Source: Bacilli bacterium
GTDB taxonomy: Bacteria > Bacillota_I > Bacilli_A > RFN20 > UBA1709
Reading direction: 5' to 3'
DNA length: 64,000 bases
Assembly: GCA_050949315.1 (NCBI GenBank)
Contig: JBMNFL010000001.1
Coordinates: 512,001-576,000, forward strand
Position numbers and translations under genes: made by a program. A model generated the notes under the pieces. That model was given only the letters and a program-made list of their open reading frames with translations, was not told where the DNA came from and did no database searches. Position 1 is the stretch's first letter; each line of letters begins with the position of its first letter. Below, piece by piece: positions 20,942 through 39,773 of the stretch.

Positions 20942-21835
20942 TCACTCAGCCAATATTTTCAAATACCAATCTAATCTTGCATTAACATAAGTTGCAAATA
21001 AAGTCTCCATCGCTGATAGATTTTGTTTACTCTGATATTCATCAAAGGCCTTGTAATAGGCTGTTCTATCCGTAAATTTAATGTCTATGGGCGGAAAACC
21101 TGCTTTCATTAATTCCAAATTTATCAACAATCTTCCGGTTCTTCCATTACCATCAATAAAGGGATGAATTCTTTCAAACTCAAGATGAAAACGGGCTAAT
21201 TTTGTTATGATATGCTCTTTACTTGCCAAAAAACTTTCTAATAACTGTTGCATTTTATTCTCTATCAAATAAGGCTGAGCGGGTTTATATTGGGCCCCAA
21301 AAATATAAACTGGAACTCGACGGTAAACACCACGATCCTCTTTTTTATCGGCAAGAACAAAATAATGAATTTGTTTAATAATGCTCTCACTCATTGAAAC
21401 ATTATCTTTCACAAGCGTAAGCACAAAATCAAAGGCCTCTTTGTGACCGACTGCCTCTAGATGATCTTTTAGAGGTTTACGAGCAATAGTCAATCCCTTT
21501 AAAACTAAATCAGTTTCCTTTAAAGTTAAAGTGTTACCTTCAATCGCATTTGAATTGTAGGTATACTCAATAATAAACTCTTCGCTTAACCTTTGCACTT
21601 CTCCTTCGGTTAATGGTCTCTTCTTATCAAGTTCGGCTTTTTTACGATCAATTTGTGATAAAAGACTTGCTTTTGACTTATAACGACCATCAGCGGGTTT
21701 TACGGCATCGCTAGGTATTTTCCAAGCTCGCCCTTCTTGATAGGCCCCTAAAATCTTGCCTTCAGAACAAAGGACTCTTATTCGTCTATCAGAAATCCTC
21801 CATTTTTCAGCAGCTTGTTTTACTGTCATAAACAT
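20942..21835 (-). CDS. Fic-domain protein with N-terminal excisionase/MerR-like HTH
   Basis: HPFIDGNGRTGR catalytic motif; SNAIEGN inhibitory motif; N-terminal TVKQAAEKW.IS.RRIR.LC..G.I.GA...W.IP HTH. Confidence 0.9.
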   Translation of the reverse strand: MFMTVKQAAEKWRISDRRIRVLCSEGKILGAYQEGRAWKIPSDAVKPADGRYKSKASLLSQIDRKKAELDKKRPLTEGEVQRLSEEFIIEYTYNSNAIEGNTLTLKETDLVLKGLTIARKPLKDHLEAVGHKEAFDFVLTLVKDNVSMSESIIKQIHYFVLADKKEDRGVYRRVPVYIFGAQYKPAQPYLIENKMQQLLESFLASKEHIITKLARFHLEFERIHPFIDGNGRTGRLLINLELMKAGFPPIDIKFTDRTAYYKAFDEYQSKQNLSAMETLFATYVNARLDWYLKILAE

Positions 21836-21860
21836 AACAAAGCCCTCCAATTTTTTATCT

Positions 21861-27920: not shown

Positions 27921-27941
27921 AAAATAGGCTTGGGCCTATTT
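27921..27941 (-). terminator. pstS-pstC intergenic stem-loop (attenuator/mRNA stabiliser)
   Basis: AAATAGGC-N4-GCCTATTT hairpin directly after the pstS stop. Confidence 0.6.
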
Positions 27942-28908
27942 ATTTGACATCACTCCATTTAATATTTTCTGTTGAATAAACTGTTTTCGCATTTGCCTTA
28001 GTGATTCCTTTAATCGGGTTAGCTTTGTTAACAATAATGGCAATACCATCAATACAAATGGTGCCATAGGTGTTTTTAGCAGCAGGTTCTTCTCCAGGAC
28101 TTGCTTCTGTACCTAACTTGATGTCTCTAGATAAGAAGCCAATATGTAATTTGTTTTGAGAATCCTTTTCTGAGCCTTGCGTTCTCTTATAAGCATCACC
28201 AGAACCGGTATGGTTATGGTTAGCAGTAAAGCTTGAACAAACATTGGCAAAGGCCTCGGTTAATTTAGTTGCAATACCTTGAACTGATGTTGATCCACCT
28301 AAGAAAATAGTGGTCTTAGTTGTATTCTGGCAAGCAGCTTTGACATCAGCATTATCGGCTTCCTCAACAATGACACTCCATTTTTTAGCAGCATCAAGTT
28401 TTTCGCTAGAAACAATGCCATCCTTAGATTTGACAATTGCTAAACCTTCCTTAGAATTCATGTACAATAAGAAGCCTTTAACCAAAACTTTTTCAGTATC
28501 ACTCATATCATCATCGGCTCTACGGATGTAGTTAAAGTTTCTCGTTAGTTTATAATCTCCACTTAAAACATTTGCTTCTGTTGGTTTAACGCCATCAAAC
28601 TCTAAAGCCTTTACTTTAGTAGTTACGGAGGCTAACGATACGTAACCAATACCATATTCATCGCCTGCAATACTTTCTAACATTGCTCCATTGGAAGCTA
28701 CAATAACCGCACCGGGGATTTTTGTGTTATCTTTTTGGGCTTCTTTATAACCAATTTTTTCAAAGAACCCCTCTCTTGTACCTGATGTGGTGTCACGACT
28801 ATACTTTTTCACGGCAGAATCCTTTTTGAAACCGCCACAGGCTGTTAGTGTAAATACTAATGCAAATACTGTAGTAATAGCCATCATTAATTTAGAACGT
28901 TTTTTCAT
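27940..28908 (-). CDS. pstS: Phosphate-binding lipoprotein (lobe order permuted)
   Basis: Lipobox LTAC; SRDTTSGTR, IGYVS, GGSTSV, TGSG and DGIAIIVN motifs. Confidence 0.88.
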   Translation of the reverse strand: MKKRSKLMMAITTVFALVFTLTACGGFKKDSAVKKYSRDTTSGTREGFFEKIGYKEAQKDNTKIPGAVIVASNGAMLESIAGDEYGIGYVSLASVTTKVKALEFDGVKPTEANVLSGDYKLTRNFNYIRRADDDMSDTEKVLVKGFLLYMNSKEGLAIVKSKDGIVSSEKLDAAKKWSVIVEEADNADVKAACQNTTKTTIFLGGSTSVQGIATKLTEAFANVCSSFTANHNHTGSGDAYKRTQGSEKDSQNKLHIGFLSRDIKLGTEASPGEEPAAKNTYGTICIDGIAIIVNKANPIKGITKANAKTVYSTENIKWSDVK

Positions 28909-29009: not shown

Positions 29010-29091
29010 GGAAAAGCCTGATACTTTGTATCAGACCTGCTTTTTCTAAATATTAGGACTCTCTTTACTATAAATAAAATGATTTTATTTA

Positions 29092-29838
29092 CTATTCATC
29101 CACTACAACTGTTCTTTTCTCATCTATCTTTTTAATGAGTTTTAGAAAGAAATATCCAATAATTAAAAAGAATGTTAAACCAATAATATAAACAAGAGCC
29201 GATAAATATGGATTAGGAATGACAATGCGAGTGTAAATATTATGTCTCCCATTAAATGCTAGCCCGAAAAATGATGTGCCAAATATGATGTTAAGCGCCA
29301 TCATAACCGCAACTGTCACATATATAATCATTGAAGCTTTAACACAGTTCCTTACCGTTAATTCTATTTTTTTAGTCAGTAATAAATAAATACTTAACAA
29401 CACCATCGTAAAATGATTAATCCAATTAAATGAATAAAGTAAATAGTAACGTGAAAATGGTTCAATTAAATAAATAATAGATTCCATAATTCCGGCAACT
29501 ATCATTCCAAAGGAAAGCATAGACATTAATAAATAAAAGTGCTTTTTAATAATTTTTGGCAAGAAAAGTACAATAAAGACCATAAAAAACATAAAAGAGC
29601 TGATATTTGCCGTAGGAAGTGCATATTTAAAATGCCGCCAAATAGGATTATCAGGTTTATGTTTTATATCTATGTCATAAGCTTCTATCGAAAGCACTAT
29701 TTGAAGTATAAATATTAATAATGTCAAAAAAACGGTGGTACTCTTATATGGTAATTTATCTTTAAACCTAAAGATTATGTACCCACCTACTAGAAGATAT
29801 AATAAGGCTGCAATTAAATTAAATGTTCCCCAAATCAT
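29092..29838 (-). CDS. 7-TM membrane protein, paralog 5 of tandem array (distantly YwaF/TMEM164-like)
   Basis: Shares LPTANIS, WxxHxTM and LNIIFGTSFFGLAFNG with four neighbours. Confidence 0.8.
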   Translation of the reverse strand: MIWGTFNLIAALLYLLVGGYIIFRFKDKLPYKSTTVFLTLLIFILQIVLSIEAYDIDIKHKPDNPIWRHFKYALPTANISSFMFFMVFIVLFLPKIIKKHFYLLMSMLSFGMIVAGIMESIIYLIEPFSRYYLLYSFNWINHFTMVLLSIYLLLTKKIELTVRNCVKASMIIYVTVAVMMALNIIFGTSFFGLAFNGRHNIYTRIVIPNPYLSALVYIIGLTFFLIIGYFFLKLIKKIDEKRTVVVDE

Positions 29839-29899
29839 TTATTATTCCTCTCTGTTATATTTGATTATACAATAACTTTCCTTGTTTTTATAACCTTTT

Positions 29900-30646
29900 T
29901 CATGTTGTTTGCTCTTCATCAACCACAACTGCTCTTTTCTCATCTATTCTTTTAATGAGTTTTAAAAAGAAATATCCAGTGACCAAAAAGAACGTTAAAC
30001 CGATAATATAAACAAAAGCTGATAAATAGGGATCAGTAATAAAAATTTGATTGTAAAAATTATGCTCCCCGTTAAAGGCTAGCCCGAAAAATGCTGTGCC
30101 AAATATTATGTTAAGCACTATCATAATTGCAACTATCGCATATATAATTATTGAGGCTTTAAGACAGTTCCTTACCGTTAATTCTATTCTTTTAGTTAGC
30201 AATAGATAAATACCAAATAATGCCATTGTAAGATGAGTAACCCATTCAATTAAAATAAATTGATGATAGTAGTTAAAAAACGCCCACCTAACAGGGCTGC
30301 CAATTCCGGCTACTATCATTGCAAAAGAAAGCAAGGCCATCAATAAATAAAAGTGTTTTTGAATGGTTTTTGGTAAGAACAACACAACAAAGACCATAGA
30401 AAACATAAATGGGCTGATATTTGCCGTAGGAAGCACAGCCATTAAATTCTCCCAAGTGGGATCAATACAGCTTATATCCATGCTATAAGTTCTTATTAAA
30501 GTCGCTACTTGAGGTATAAATATTAATAATGTCATGAGAATAGTGGTAACCTTATATGGTAATTTATCTTTAAACCTAAAAATTATATACCCACCTGCTA
30601 GAAGATATAATATAGCCGCAACTAAATTCAATATTTTCCAAAACAT
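29900..30646 (-). CDS. 7-TM membrane protein, paralog 4
   Basis: Same conserved blocks; SD GGAGG. Confidence 0.8.
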   Translation of the reverse strand: MFWKILNLVAAILYLLAGGYIIFRFKDKLPYKVTTILMTLLIFIPQVATLIRTYSMDISCIDPTWENLMAVLPTANISPFMFSMVFVVLFLPKTIQKHFYLLMALLSFAMIVAGIGSPVRWAFFNYYHQFILIEWVTHLTMALFGIYLLLTKRIELTVRNCLKASIIIYAIVAIMIVLNIIFGTAFFGLAFNGEHNFYNQIFITDPYLSAFVYIIGLTFFLVTGYFFLKLIKRIDEKRAVVVDEEQTT

Positions 30647-31580
30647 TTATTACCCTCCGTTTTTTAAGTCTTTTTCATGTTGTTTGCTTTTCATCCATCA
30701 CAACTGTTCTTTTCTCATCTATTCTTTTAATAAATTTTAAAAACCAATAACCAATAATTAAAAAGCATGTTAAACCGATAACATAAACAAGAGCCGATAA
30801 ATAGGGATTAGAAATGACAATTAGAGTGTAAATATTATGTTTTCCATTAAAGGCTAGCCCGAAAAATGCTGTGCCAAGTATAATATTAAGGATCATCATA
30901 ATTGCAACTGTCACATATATAATCATTGAAGCTTTAACACAGTTCTTTACTGTTACTTCTATTTTTTTAGTCAACAACAAATAAATGCCAAAAAATGCCA
31001 TTGTAAGATGGGTAATCCACTCAATTGAAATAAATGAATAGTAGTAATGGTAAAAAAACGCATAATAAACAGGGCTTCCGATTCCGGCAACTACCATTAC
31101 AAAGGAAAACAAGGCCATTAATAAATAAAAGTGTTTTTGAATAATTTTTGGTAAGAACAACACAACAAACACCATAAAAAACATAAATGGGCTAATATTC
31201 GCGGTAGGAAGCGTGTATTTAAAATGCCAACCGGTAACACCATCATAATTGCAATAATAATTTATCAATGAAAATACATAAGGTATAAATATTAATAATG
31301 TCATGAGAATAGTGGTAACCTTATATGGTAATTTATCTTTAAACCTAAAAATTATATACCCACCTGCTAGAAGATATAATATAGCCGCAACTAAATTCAA
31401 TATTTTCCAAAGCATTTACTACCCTCCGTTTTTTAAGCCTTTTTCATGTTGTTTGCTCTTCATCCACTACAACTGTTCTTTTCTCATCTATTCTTTTAAT
31501 AAATTTTAAAAACCAATAACCAATAATTAAAAAGCAGGTTAAACCGATAACATAAACAAGAGCCGATAAATAGGGATTAG
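30512..31580. repeat. Near-identical 300-bp direct repeat (30512-30811 vs 31281-31580) spanning paralog junctions
   Basis: Manual alignment at offset 769 bp shows about 7 mismatches; the first ~130 bp are identical. Confidence 0.85.
30675..31415 (-). CDS. 7-TM membrane protein, paralog 3
   Basis: Same conserved blocks; SD GGAGG. Confidence 0.8.
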   Translation of the reverse strand: MLWKILNLVAAILYLLAGGYIIFRFKDKLPYKVTTILMTLLIFIPYVFSLINYYCNYDGVTGWHFKYTLPTANISPFMFFMVFVVLFLPKIIQKHFYLLMALFSFVMVVAGIGSPVYYAFFYHYYYSFISIEWITHLTMAFFGIYLLLTKKIEVTVKNCVKASMIIYVTVAIMMILNIILGTAFFGLAFNGKHNIYTLIVISNPYLSALVYVIGLTCFLIIGYWFLKFIKRIDEKRTVVMDEKQTT

Positions 31581-32187
31581 GAATGATAATATGTCGATAA
31601 ATATGATGCTCCCCATTAAAGGCTAGCCCGAAAAATGATGTACCAAATATAATATTAAGGATCATCATAATTGCAACTGTCGCATATATAATCATTGAAG
31701 CTTTAATACAGTTTCTTACCGTTAATTCTATTCTTTTAGTTAGCAATAGATAAATGCCAAAAAACGCCATTGTAAAATGATTAATCCAATTAATTGAACA
31801 AAATAAATAATAATAATTTGGTTTAGATGAATAAATAATACATTCTATAATTCCGGCAACTATCATTCCAAAGGAAAGCATAGACATTAATAAATAAAAA
31901 TGCTTTTTGATGGCTTTGGGCAAGAAGAGGACAATAAAGACCATTATAAACATAAATGGACTGATATTTGCCGTAGGAAGCATGTTCTTTAAATTCCACC
32001 AAATAGGAGCACTTTCTTTTCTATCAATGTTATAAACTTCTATTAAGACCACTATTTGAAGTATGAATATTAGTAATGTAAAAAAAATGGTGGTAATCTT
32101 ATATGGTAGTTTATCTTTAAACTTAAAGATTATATACCCACCTATTAAAAGATATAATAAGGCTGCAACTACGTTCAAGATATTCAA
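31444..32187 (-). CDS. 7-TM membrane protein, paralog 2 (homologous start codon is ACG)
   Basis: Intact frame; the position aligned to the ATG of its siblings (32191-32193) reads ACG; the next possible start is TTG at 32187. Confidence 0.7.
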   Translation of the reverse strand: MNILNVVAALLYLLIGGYIIFKFKDKLPYKITTIFFTLLIFILQIVVLIEVYNIDRKESAPIWWNLKNMLPTANISPFMFIMVFIVLFLPKAIKKHFYLLMSMLSFGMIVAGIIECIIYSSKPNYYYLFCSINWINHFTMAFFGIYLLLTKRIELTVRNCIKASMIIYATVAIMMILNIIFGTSFFGLAFNGEHHIYRHIIIPNPYLSALVYVIGLTCFLIIGYWFLKFIKRIDEKRTVVVDEEQTT

Positions 32188-32254
32188 ACTCGTTTATTGT
32201 TCCTCCCTGTTATATTTGATTATACAATAAATATCCTTGTTTTTATAACCTTTT

Positions 32255-32983
32255 TCATGTTGTCTGCTCTTCATCAACCACAACTGCTCTTTTCTCATCT
32301 ATCTTTTTAATAAACTTTAAAAAGAAATATCCAGTGACCAAAAAGAATGTTACACCAGTAATATAAACAAGAGCCGATAAATATGGGTTAGGAATGATAA
32401 TATGTCGATAAATATGATGCTCCCCATTAAATGCCAGCCCGAAAAATGATGTGCCAAATATTATGTTAAGTACTATCATAATTGCAACTATCATATATAT
32501 AATCATTAAGGCTTTAAGACAATTCTTTACCGTTATCTCTATTCTTTTAGTCAGCAAAAGATAAATGCCAAAAAAGGCCATTGTAAAATGGGTAATCCAC
32601 TCAATTGAAAAAAACGGATAATAACGGTCAAAAAACATATACCAAATAGGGCTTCCGATTCCGGCAACTATCATTGTAAAGGAAAGCATCGTCATTAATA
32701 AATAAAAGTGTTTTTTGATGATTTTTGGTAAGAACAACACAACAAACACCATTGTAAACATAAGTGAACTAATATTTGAAGTAGGAAGCACATTATTAAA
32801 ATTCCACCAAGAATCTTTACGATAAAAATTTATTAAGGAAAATACATAGGGTACAAATATTAAAAACGTTAACACAACTGTGATAATTTTATACGGCAAT
32901 CTATCTTTAAACTTAAAGATTATGTACCCTCCTACAAGAAGATATAATATGGCCGCGATTAAATTCAATACTTCCCTAATCAT
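32255..32983 (-). CDS. 7-TM membrane protein, paralog 1 (promoter-proximal)
   Basis: Same conserved blocks; first gene of the array. Confidence 0.8.
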   Translation of the reverse strand: MIREVLNLIAAILYLLVGGYIIFKFKDRLPYKIITVVLTFLIFVPYVFSLINFYRKDSWWNFNNVLPTSNISSLMFTMVFVVLFLPKIIKKHFYLLMTMLSFTMIVAGIGSPIWYMFFDRYYPFFSIEWITHFTMAFFGIYLLLTKRIEITVKNCLKALMIIYMIVAIMIVLNIIFGTSFFGLAFNGEHHIYRHIIIPNPYLSALVYITGVTFFLVTGYFFLKFIKKIDEKRAVVVDEEQTT

Positions 32984-33166
32984 TTATTGTTCCTCTTTAC
33001 GACACATTCCTATGCCACCCATACCCTTTGTTTTTATTACTTTTATAAATGCTTCTTTTCTTGTTTTCATCAATATACTATTATTATACCTGTTTTAGTA
33101 GATTATAAAACCAAAAAGACTAAAGTTTGCCGATTTTTTCTTCTGTTCTAAAGTATCTTTCATGAT

Positions 33167-33218
33167 AAAAACTCCCTTTTCATTGTACCAACTTTGGTCC
33201 AAATTAAGGGAGCATTTT
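33167..33218 (-). terminator. Terminator after tRNA-His
   Basis: CTCCCTT...AAGGGAG outer stem with inner TTGGACCAA/TTGGTACAA pairing, then TTTT. Confidence 0.65.
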
Positions 33219-33227
33219 CAAAAAAGA

Positions 33228-33304
33228 TGGGGCGGAAAATGGGAATTGAACCCACGAATGCCTGATCCACAGTCAGGTGCGTTAACCTCTTCGCCACTTC
33301 CGCC
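33228..33304 (-). tRNA. tRNA-His (anticodon GTG)
   Basis: G-1 plus GCGGAAG acceptor, CCTGA-CT-GTG-GA-TCAGG anticodon arm, GGTTCAATTCC T-arm, C73 and CCA. Confidence 0.97.
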
Positions 33305-38053: not shown

Positions 38054-39070
38054 CTAACGACTTTTATTAAACTTCTTTAAGGCCTCTTCAACCGCGACCG
38101 CAATTTCAACTGTCGCCCCAACCATGGGATTATTGCCCATGCCAATAAAACCCATCATTTCCACATGGGCCGGAACTGAAGAAGAGCCGGCAAATTGGGC
38201 ATCACTATGCATCCGCCCCATCGTATCGGTTAAACCGTAGGAAGCCGGTCCTGCCGCCATGTTATCAGGATGCAGTGTTCTACCGGTCCCCCCACCTGAG
38301 GCCACCGAAAAATACTTTTTCCCCGCCTCTAAGCGCTCTTTTTTATAAGTCCCCGCTACAGGATGTTGGAAGCGGGAGGGATTAGTTGAATTGCCGGTAA
38401 TTGAGACATCAACATTTTCCTGCCACATAACAGCAACACCCTCGCGCACATCATCCACCCCATAACAACGAACCTTGCTTCTTGGTCCTTTTGAATAGGG
38501 TTTCTCGCTGACAACTGTTAATTTTCCACTGCGGTAATCAAAACTGGTCTCCACATGAGTAAAACCATTGAGACGCGAAATAATAAGGGCGGCATCCTTG
38601 CCTAAACCATTTAAAATAACCCGCAAAGCTTTCTTACGAACCTTATTGGCAGAATTAGCAATACCTATTGCCCCTTCAGCGGCCGCAAAGGATTCATGAC
38701 CAGCTAAGAAAGCAAAACATTCAGTTTCTTCTGAAAGTAGCATACTGGCAAGATTACCGTGCCCTAAACCTACCTTGCGCTCAGCGGCAACACTGCCTTC
38801 TATGCAAAAACTCTGTAAAGCTTCACCAATTATCTTAGCCACCTCACTAGCTTTCTTCTTTTCCTGTTTTAAAGCCATGGCCGCTCCTAAAGTATAGGCC
38901 CAGGCAGCATCATCAAAACTGATGGGTTGCACTTCTTTAACAATCTTTAAAGGATCAAAGCCATAATCTAAACAGAGCTGATGAGCCGCTTTTAAATCTT
39001 TTAAACCATGCCGTTTAAGGAGTTCACTAATCTTATCGATTCTTTGATCATATTTTTCAAATAAAGCCAT
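38054..39070 (-). CDS. GGGtGRT protein
   Basis: Signature SGGGTGRTLHPDNM; start placed at MALFEKY (ATG 39070, SD AGGAG). Confidence 0.9.
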   Translation of the reverse strand: MALFEKYDQRIDKISELLKRHGLKDLKAAHQLCLDYGFDPLKIVKEVQPISFDDAAWAYTLGAAMALKQEKKKASEVAKIIGEALQSFCIEGSVAAERKVGLGHGNLASMLLSEETECFAFLAGHESFAAAEGAIGIANSANKVRKKALRVILNGLGKDAALIISRLNGFTHVETSFDYRSGKLTVVSEKPYSKGPRSKVRCYGVDDVREGVAVMWQENVDVSITGNSTNPSRFQHPVAGTYKKERLEAGKKYFSVASGGGTGRTLHPDNMAAGPASYGLTDTMGRMHSDAQFAGSSSVPAHVEMMGFIGMGNNPMVGATVEIAVAVEEALKKFNKSR

Positions 39071-39080
39071 AATTTCACTC

Positions 39081-39773
39081 CTATTCTTTTCTAGGGTCAA
39101 TGATTTTGCTAGCTTCATCAAAACGCCCATATTTACCACTGGCTTGTTTGAGAGCCTCATCGCCTGATAGACCCGCTTTTAAACTTTCCATAAGCTTTCC
39201 TAAATTAACATATTTATAACCAATAATCTCATCATTTTCATCTAAACCTAATTCGGTGATATAACCTTCCGAGAGTTCTAAATAACGCGGTCCTTTAAGC
39301 TTGCTACCATAACAAGTTCCTATTTGGCTACGTTTATTTTTTCCTAAATCCTCTAAAGCGGCGCCAACGGCTAGCCCACCTTCAGAAAAGGCCGTTTGGC
39401 TGCGACCATAGGCAATTTGAAGGAATAATTCACGCATCGCAACATTAATCGCATCACAGACCAAATCGGTATTTAAGGCCTCTAAGATGGTTTTCCCAAT
39501 CAAAATCTCACTGGCCATCGCGGCTGAATGGGTCATACCAGAACAACCAAGGGTTTCAATCAAGGCTTCCTCAATAATACCATTCTTGATATTTAATGTT
39601 AGCTTACAAGCACCCTGTTGAGGCGCACACCAGCCAACTCCGTGAGTTAAACCCGAGATGTCTTTGATTTCCTTAACCTTATCCCAGCGCCCTTCTTGGG
39701 GAATGGGGGCTGAACCATGTTTAGCCGCACAAGCAACACAGCCCATCTTTTTTATTTCTGTTGTATAACGCAT
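39081..39773 (-). CDS. NifU/IscU-like protein, partner of GGGtGRT
   Basis: GWCAPQQGACKL, GCSGMTHSAAM and LVCDAIN conserved Cys motifs. Confidence 0.8.
   Translation of the reverse strand: MRYTTEIKKMGCVACAAKHGSAPIPQEGRWDKVKEIKDISGLTHGVGWCAPQQGACKLTLNIKNGIIEEALIETLGCSGMTHSAAMASEILIGKTILEALNTDLVCDAINVAMRELFLQIAYGRSQTAFSEGGLAVGAALEDLGKNKRSQIGTCYGSKLKGPRYLELSEGYITELGLDENDEIIGYKYVNLGKLMESLKAGLSGDEALKQASGKYGRFDEASKIIDPRKE

Follow-up and report, generated by a model that had tools for sequence, protein, structure and literature searches.

The stretch of DNA analysed here, hereafter the window, comprises 64,000 nucleotides (nt) of a Bacilli bacterium (GenBank assembly GCA_050949315.1, contig JBMNFL010000001.1, positions 512,001 to 576,000) and carries on its minus strand, between positions 29092 and 32983, a head-to-tail run of five paralogous open reading frames (ORFs) of 242–248 aa. 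Copy 1 (32255..32983, minus strand, 242 aa) encodes a TMEM164/YwaF-like protein with seven transmembrane helices (7-TM), in which the loop after helix TM2 is the shortest of the five. It is followed on the same strand by copy 2 (31444..32187, 247 aa counted from a TTG start), copy 3 (30675..31415, 246 aa), which was modelled with AlphaFold2 (AF2) and displays Ser75 as candidate nucleophile together with His136, copy 4 (29900..30646, 248 aa), in which the DNA of codons 1–40 is 99–100% identical to that of copy 3, and copy 5 (29092..29838, 248 aa), which ends with a TAG stop and has the longest variable loops. A preliminary description of the locus had reported five tandem genes of about 245 aa; these were recovered at the same limits, along with every motif and all five post-TM2 loop sequences quoted in it. 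The copies are confined to the array, no others being found in the single-contig genome of 1,011,443 bp (marker completeness 92.85%).

Profile and structural comparisons indicate a solid homology of the five proteins to the TMEM164/YwaF arm of the AIG1/TMEM164/GPC1/YwaF/YpjA (ATGY) superfamily, within which they would represent a rare and divergent Ser-type branch that scores below the thresholds of the established profiles. All five copies match PF14808 (TMEM164) over their full length with 15.7–23.6 bits (copy 1: E 0.0014 and 18.6 bits at a cut-off of 25), and 27 of 51 full-length members of their family match this profile at E≤0.01, the best of them at 2.2e-10. When the family alignment was compared by hhalign with one built from 13 canonical PF14808 proteins that related genomes encode, a probability of 97.5% and an E-value of 7.4e-12 over 168 columns resulted. 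For the AF2 model of copy 3 (pLDDT 89.8, pTM 0.88), an exhaustive VIA-align search of 48,161 chains returned the TMEM164 cryo-EM structure (9lw1_A) as top match, with Z 11.0 and a root-mean-square distance of 4.2 Å over 187 residues at 10% identity, while the runner-up chain reached Z 6.2. Among the 30 nearest clusters of the ESM Atlas, 27 carry PF14808, with TM-scores of 0.78–0.86. A Foldseek search of the PDB with the model of copy 3 yielded no match at E≤0.001, TMEM164 being found by VIA-align alone, and the family profile matched nothing among the PDB sequences at E≤10. The resemblance to a YwaF/TMEM164-AIG1 type fold, which the preliminary description had read from short motifs, is borne out by the hhalign result, the 9LW1 match and the PF14808 neighbours in the Atlas.

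The family is rare. It accounts for 19 matches among 5.8 billion clustered proteins and for 143 cluster representatives at E≤0.001 among 1.84 billion, and a survey of one genome each of 185,579 species revealed 37 loci, mostly in metagenome-assembled genomes of uncultured Clostridia and Bacilli. Of 40 related genomes one has a family match, and the PHROGs database returned only families of unknown function, with a best E-value of at least 0.039.

The five paralogs share 69–76% protein identity (69–73% to copy 1), with a mean column identity of 80% in their alignment. Most of this alignment displays an identity of 0.7–0.93 in windows of 9 columns, whereas the values drop to 0.12–0.26 at columns 56–70, after TM2, and to 0.22–0.39 at columns 121–135, after TM4, and both of these loops contain insertions and deletions. 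The post-TM2 loop of copy 5 is encoded by 29620..29688 on the minus strand, with equivalents at 30434-30496, 31212-31265, 31981-32043 and 32789-32833; the post-TM4 loop of copy 5 is encoded by 29425..29487, on the same strand, with equivalents at 30245-30301, 31020-31079, 31789-31848 and 32600-32656. Of the three divergent loops proposed initially, those after TM2 and TM4 can be maintained, but that after TM6 shows only mild variation (identity 0.60–0.62; ratio of nonsynonymous to synonymous differences per site, pN/pS, 0.38) and adjoins the strongly conserved FFGLAFNG hairpin. Despite changes in length and charge, the variable loops retain a conserved Trp and an aromatic-rich character. Lys and Arg, counted with flanks of 4 residues, add up to 13–14 in the inner loops and to 1–7 in the outer loops in all five copies; this asymmetry, together with the helices of the AF2 model, supports a 7-TM topology of the N-out/C-in type that leaves the variable loops on the outside, in agreement with the orientation first assigned to them.

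According to Reed et al. (bioRxiv 10.1101/2022.07.06.498872), the ATGY superfamily is defined by a variable nucleophile on core TM2 in combination with an invariant His on core TM4, and YwaF and YpjA proteins carry variably Ser, Thr or Cys beside the invariant His. In all 13 canonical PF14808 proteins compared here, both an LPLHLC-type Cys, which aligns with C123 of 9LW1, and a His are invariant. The latter aligns with H136, which all five copies share and which 85 of the 88 family sequences contain. The canonical Cys is absent from the array copies, as the preliminary description had stated. Both the hhalign comparison and 62 of the 88 rows of an hmmalign alignment put S75 in the column of this Cys, and Ser75 most likely holds the position of the catalytic residue, although the register may be off by one. 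Conservation in the 88 sequences is high for S75 (83/88), N73 (84/88) and N177 (88/88), and position 132 is acidic in 77 of them. The Thr of the LPT motif had also been proposed as a conserved catalytic residue. Although all five copies have this Thr (T71), only 41 of the 88 family sequences do, the others displaying Val, Leu, Ile or Phe, and it is therefore not a catalytic residue at the level of the family; instead, it is most likely S75 that aligns with the catalytic Cys.

In the AF2 model, variable loop 2 (after TM2) is succeeded by a helix that has S75 in its opening turn, and variable loop 4 (after TM4) by one that has H136 nine residues in. Both variable loops thus appear to run directly into the two helices carrying the candidate catalytic residues, at the outer side of the membrane, and the predicted N-out/C-in topology would place the S75/H136 dyad near the outer leaflet. 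The catalytic centre of TMEM164 is described (PMC12830759) as consisting of E106, C123, H124, Y177 and H181. By their numbering, these residues would be situated at the ends of the helices flanking the equivalent loops.

Loss of the canonical Cys could also mean that the acyl-transfer chemistry was abandoned and that the ATGY fold has been kept in a non-catalytic membrane protein, such as a transporter, scaffold or sensor. The uncertain register of S75 would be compatible with such a change of function. However, S75, N73, H136 and N177 are each conserved in 83 to 88 of the 88 sequences at the expected pocket positions, and Ser nucleophiles are reported for the ATGY superfamily by Reed et al. 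(bioRxiv 10.1101/2022.07.06.498872), which makes a non-catalytic role of the five proteins improbable.

In the tree, the five copies group together in a single clade (support 100/99), composed of the subclades {2,5} and {1,3,4}, and their nearest outgroups are single-copy genes. Elsewhere one copy per locus is found, namely at 37 genome loci, in the additional genome G009 and at 31 metagenome loci (69 in total), as counted in DNA reaching up to 6 kb on each side of the gene, with many contigs being shorter; two of these 69 single-copy genes are split into two ORFs. Since all 69 other loci are single-copy, the array represents a lineage-specific five-fold tandem expansion, although concerted evolution could make its age appear too low. 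A search of metagenome contigs with the five-copy alignment revealed no related locus, and no synteny with the window was observed in 38 homologous loci. A foreign origin of the array was considered because of its GC content of 0.294, compared to 0.368 for the window, but was rejected as unsupported, since the GC content at third codon positions of 0.26–0.31 overlaps the 0.28–0.35 of the neighbouring genes.

Recombination among the copies is ongoing and clearly detectable, as none of 2000 permutations in the pairwise homoplasy index (PHI) test was as low as the observed value. The mosaic can be followed along the genes: at codons 211–240 the DNA of copies 2 and 3 is 99% identical, copies 2 and 5 are closest to each other over codons 91–140, and copies 1 and 2 over codons 181–220. 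An exchange tract on the minus strand (31250..31549), which covers the C-terminus of copy 2, the spacer and the N-terminus of copy 3, matches at 93% the segment 30481-30780, i.e. the C-terminus of copy 3, the spacer and the N-terminus of copy 4. Such a likeness is what unequal crossing-over or gene conversion leaves behind.

The loops have escaped this homogenisation. Mean synonymous divergence (pS) per segment is about uniform (0.27–0.47), whereas pN/pS amounts to 0.22–0.31 in the core, a sign of purifying selection, and to 1.06 and 1.12 in the two loops, to which a near-neutral divergence is confined. We take these values to mean that each of the five genes is functional and subject to selection, with their ends homogenised by exchange, and that the two loops flanking the putative active site were either released from constraint or pushed apart. 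In none of the 10 copy pairs is loop pN/pS significantly above 1; positive selection on the loops is possible. The pN/pS values reveal a constrained core and loops at about 1.1 and do not demonstrate positive selection, and the term 'hypervariable' chosen in the preliminary description, although correct in that divergence is concentrated in the loops, overstates the case.

The main rival explanation is neutral drift of redundant copies, in which the array is a dosage amplification of one and the same activity: the least constrained outer loops would drift while conversion and purifying selection maintain the remainder. Loop pN/pS values of 1.06–1.12, not significantly above 1 in any pair, are what such drift would produce, clear recombination between the copies fits as well, and tandem duplicates of canonical PF14808 genes occur in the relatives G018, G024, G025 and G029. 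Among 79 distant family members, however, the loops are no freer than other parts of the protein, with an identity of 0.23 in loop 2 and 0.19 in loop 4 as compared to 0.19 in TM1 and 0.05 in the C-terminal tail, which argues for a loss of constraint specific to the clade of the array. Part of loop 2 even forms a recognisable motif in more distant members. Among the paralogs, by contrast, identity amounts to 0.72 in TM1 and 0.85 in the C-tail, and to 0.32 and 0.37 in the two loops; TM1 and the C-tail, free among orthologues, are thus kept alike among the paralogs. The two identity profiles correlate weakly (Spearman rho 0.19), and on these alignments the divergence pattern of the paralogs does not simply mirror the general constraint on the family. 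In addition, five intact copies with a constrained core at a pS of about 0.35 persist in a genome of 1 Mb, and the loops have kept their conserved Trp and aromatic-rich character despite their changes in length and charge. Mere dosage amplification is accordingly regarded as rather unlikely.

Taken with the models, the sequence data give about an even chance to the interpretation that the array encodes outward-facing Ser/His enzymes for acyl transfer from, or hydrolysis of, lipids, present in five copies that differ at the entrance of the pocket. Of the three functions offered in the preliminary description, intramembrane hydrolases with varied substrates provide the best fit. In such a mechanism, an acyl-Ser intermediate would be formed from a lipid donor at the outer face, and the acyl group would then be passed, without involvement of CoA or ATP, either to an acceptor molecule, as in a transacylase, or to water, as in a hydrolase. 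The five loop variants would shape the pocket entrance differently, so that each copy might use different donors or acceptors. More speculatively, this could help a bacterium of 1 Mb genome size, in which the type II fatty-acid synthase is apparently incomplete, to exploit or remodel a variety of lipids from outside or surface molecules anchored to lipids.

The closest known proteins are those of the YwaF type (PF14808, TIGR02206), which share the 7-TM fold with its core of six helices and one additional helix, the topology, an LP segment leading into the nucleophile helix, an invariant His on the next-but-one helix and a conserved Asn on TM6, and whose genes occur in several copies, at times in tandem, in related genomes. 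They differ by an invariant Cys (LPLHLC) in place of the candidate nucleophile Ser75 (LPTANIS), and a five-gene array with divergence focused on loops was seen at none of the 69 other loci examined. In structure, the best match is human TMEM164 (9LW1), which transacylates phospholipids independently of CoA; H136 corresponds to H181 and, by transitive alignment, the candidate nucleophile position to C123. The differences comprise the low identity of 10% and the probable replacement of Cys by Ser; in TMEM164, E106 and H124 serve as metal ligands. LhaT (YpjA, DUF1405), the lipoprotein N-acetyltransferase of Bacillus, sets a functional example of a site turned outward, being described as an ATGY enzyme that acts at the extracellular face of a Gram-positive membrane by bimolecular acyl transfer from a lipid-linked donor (PMC12345273). 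LhaT belongs to a different branch, with Atlas TM-scores of 0.42/0.54 to a DUF1405 cluster, six TM helices and no array. The Thr/His hydrolases AIG1 and ADTRP, which act on esters formed by fatty acids with hydroxy fatty acids (FAHFA), are members of the same superfamily with the same logic of nucleophile and His, according to Reed et al. (bioRxiv 10.1101/2022.07.06.498872); in the family of the array, T71 is restricted to 41 of 88 sequences, and PF04750 is not among the listed sequence matches of the copies.

Canonical members of PF14808 also occur in the genome that carries the array, where two genes elsewhere pass the cut-off with 87.6 and 45.1 bits. One of the two is fused to an ABC transporter component in an 843-aa ORF outside the window, on the minus strand (G000:C1:357135-359666; L007:124-2655), in which the TMEM164/YwaF domain with its LPLHLC-type Cys occupies residues 211–385 and the ABC-transporter ATPase residues 514–656. 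PF14808-matching ORFs of about 726–789 aa recur in many related genomes, and this suggests a conserved acyltransferase-ABC fusion among the relatives. In 3 of the 37 genome loci (38 scanned when G009 is included), a canonical Cys-type YwaF gene is found near the Ser-type gene, directly adjacent in L037 and L055 and about 5 kb away in L056, which hints that Ser- and Cys-type genes may cooperate, or that one type was derived from the other by duplication.

The five genes of the array are separated by spacers of 67, 28, 28 and 61 nt, and a Shine-Dalgarno-like site is present in front of each ORF. A stretch of 244 nt without coding sequence (32984..33227, minus strand) extends from copy 1 to a tRNA-His gene (33228-33303), which forms the upstream boundary of the array. 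It contains promoter-like hexamers at 33109-33080 and an AAGAGGA ribosome-binding site upstream of copy 1; hexamers of this kind are not enriched, with 26 found compared to a mean of 29.2 in shuffled sequences. A terminator-like hairpin with a T-run (29014..29038, minus strand) follows copy 5 and likely marks the end of the five-gene unit. Due to the short spacers of 28–67 nt, an own ribosome-binding site for each gene and a single terminator after copy 5, the five genes are probably co-transcribed. Short identical contigs covering parts of copies 1–4 in one metatranscriptome library give a weak hint that the array is transcribed. At its start (32185-32193), copy 2 displays ACG where the other four copies have ATG in register. 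Its first usable start is the TTG two codons past the ACG, located 12 nt after a GGGAGGA site, and the public gene call begins at an internal Met and comprises 202 aa only (P0004). Copy 2 may therefore be translated poorly or from an unusual start.

Downstream of the array, pstS-pstC-pstA-pstB-phoU are followed by a two-component system. The ten neighbours identified are PstS, a CDF exporter, ArsP_2, FeoB, a GGGtGRT protein, PstB, PhoU, a response regulator, a histidine kinase and a Fic-HTH protein. The PstS-like protein (27940-28908) has a lipoprotein-type signal (LTAC), and its Pfam match, PBP_like_2, covers residues 194–320 only. The Fic/DOC protein with an HTH_17 domain is encoded at 20942-21850 and the protein of the GGGtGRT family (E 2.5e-183) at 38054-39160; both genes share the minus-strand gene run of the array, and all ORFs of the window with at least 150 aa are on the minus strand.

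Arrays of tandem polytopic membrane paralogs that recombine are known as immunity loci, an example being tsaI (DUF443) of S. aureus. On this analogy, the array had been proposed to be a diversifying surface repertoire which confers immunity to polymorphic membrane toxins or bacteriocins, or varies a phage receptor. Tandem polytopic paralogs with outward variable loops and recombination among the copies are features that such a repertoire would share. Homology to DUF443, adjacent toxin or secretion genes and allele variation between strains, however, were not observed. No copy matches DUF443 (PF04276) or another immunity family at E≤1, and a genome-wide search for PF04276 found none, with the control genomes being equally silent. 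No WXG100 gene was found in the 92.85%-complete single-contig genome, PADLOC gave 0 hits, and no toxin, marker of a type VII secretion system (T7SS) or recombinase is located among the neighbours of the array, which encode PstS, a CDF transporter, ArsP_2, FeoB, PhoU and a two-component system instead. There are 0 inverted repeats at the array, and the only repeat tracts are homopolymers of 7–8 nt and low-scoring short tandem repeats, so that no switch of the shufflon or slippage type is seen. Moreover, the 69 other loci harbor one copy each, and no neighbour is conserved in the 38 homologous loci compared, any neighbour family being common to at most 4 of them; the shared families are an ABC-transporter ATPase fusion and housekeeping genes. 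Finally, residues of catalytic type are conserved.

Further evidence on this proposal comes from public sequencing runs. A share of 0.58–0.91 of the sampled 31-mers of the array is present in 16 DNA runs, which carry the labels anaerobic digester, bioreactor or metagenome, and the 20 runs with at least part of the array originate from 15 studies. Contigs were compared from the three DNA runs with the lowest sharing, each from another study. In all, the contig comparison covered runs X14–X17, in which some stretches of the array, among them copy 5 in the RNA run, have no contig cover; the word shares of runs X18–X20 are small. Contig pieces with at least 99% identity to the array account for 20/21, 8/10 and 13/13 of the pieces in these runs, without insertions or deletions. 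Among the matches listed (31 of 56 pieces), 9 of the 10 variable loops are fully covered without any difference in at least one DNA run, while loop 4 of copy 3 is covered in part, by the RNA run alone. As far as the contigs show, the alleles are alike across three studies and the array appears fixed, an outcome that the preliminary description had named as speaking against a diversifying system; no contig spans the whole array.

A few deviations argue against a plain verdict of fixation. Of the matched contigs of run X15, 54% continue into dissimilar sequence, and five ends are loose. Runs X15 and X14 display clusters of 6 and 5 single-base differences at 30643-30699 and 32303-32315, respectively, which sit at gene-end and spacer junctions between paralogs, the rest of the array being identical. 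These clusters may be small conversion tracts between paralogs, a related strain or assembly artefacts. One contig of X16 joins copy 1 (32402-32720) back to copy 3 (31144-31310), a step that 'goes back 1577' with 32 nt shared, and may represent a recombinant, a duplicated form of the array or a k-mer assembly chimera. As possible recombinants, the X16 joint (32720 to 31144) and the clusters of X15 and X14 at the paralog junctions would fit a repertoire, but because of the 32 nt shared on both sides a k-mer chimera is as likely an origin of the X16 joint as recombination. With 9 of 10 loops unchanged in the contigs of other studies among the matches listed, and without an immunity family, a toxin neighbour, WXG100, a PADLOC hit or a phase-variation tract, a tsaI-like or phage-receptor repertoire is very improbable, and the 'hypervariable immunity repertoire' was removed as a tempting but unsupported reading.

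The lipid metabolism of the organism offers a context for the proposed enzymes. The bacterium comes from anaerobic digesters, and its genome measures about 1 Mb. The genome yielded no match to FabA/FabZ and a single partial match to a β-ketoacyl synthase (KAS; 26.6 bits), while PlsY and Lgt are present. The type II fatty-acid synthase thus appears to be incomplete, and the bacterium may depend on external fatty acids.

Against this background, the array can be pictured more specifically as a natural specificity panel: five outward-facing, CoA-independent Ser/His transacylases or hydrolases for lipids, the substrate-entry loops of which would be kept distinct by selection in the face of ongoing gene conversion, and with which a fatty-acid-auxotrophic digester bacterium could harvest, remodel or decorate different lipids from outside or lipid-anchored molecules of its surface. 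This extended scheme is put forward tentatively, as possible though doubtful in its entirety. Several observations weigh against the reading as lipid enzymes that differ at the pocket entrance. All five copies score below the PF14808 gathering cut-off of 25 bits, and TIGR02206 is matched by copy 2 only, with 12.2 bits at a cut-off of 75 bits. The register between Ser and Cys is uncertain by one residue, in a region where the confidence of hhalign is low, and 7 of the 13 rows of the reverse alignment have the canonical Cys at column 74, while 4 have it at column 75. That the loops lie close to S75 and H136 is deduced from the position in the sequence and from the residue numbers of TMEM164. A loop pN/pS of about 1 is expected from relaxed constraint alone, the hint at transcription consists of short contigs from one RNA library in which carry-over of DNA is possible, and a match to one C-terminal domain of the FabH type weakens the hint at fatty-acid auxotrophy. 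Furthermore, no substrate is assigned to any bacterial YwaF-type protein in the literature found.

Bacterial proteins of the YwaF/TMEM164 type are widespread, and the YpjA branch, represented by LhaT, is the only one among prokaryotic ATGY members for which a demonstrated function was found in the literature. In the present organism, about 0.4% of the DNA of a reduced genome is taken up by an array for one enzyme family. Its constant catalytic core, combined with two differing flanking loops, represents a comparison set for substrates and specificity determinants. If the proposed specificity panel holds true, it would provide a first handle on substrate choice in the uncharacterised bacterial enzymes of the YwaF type.

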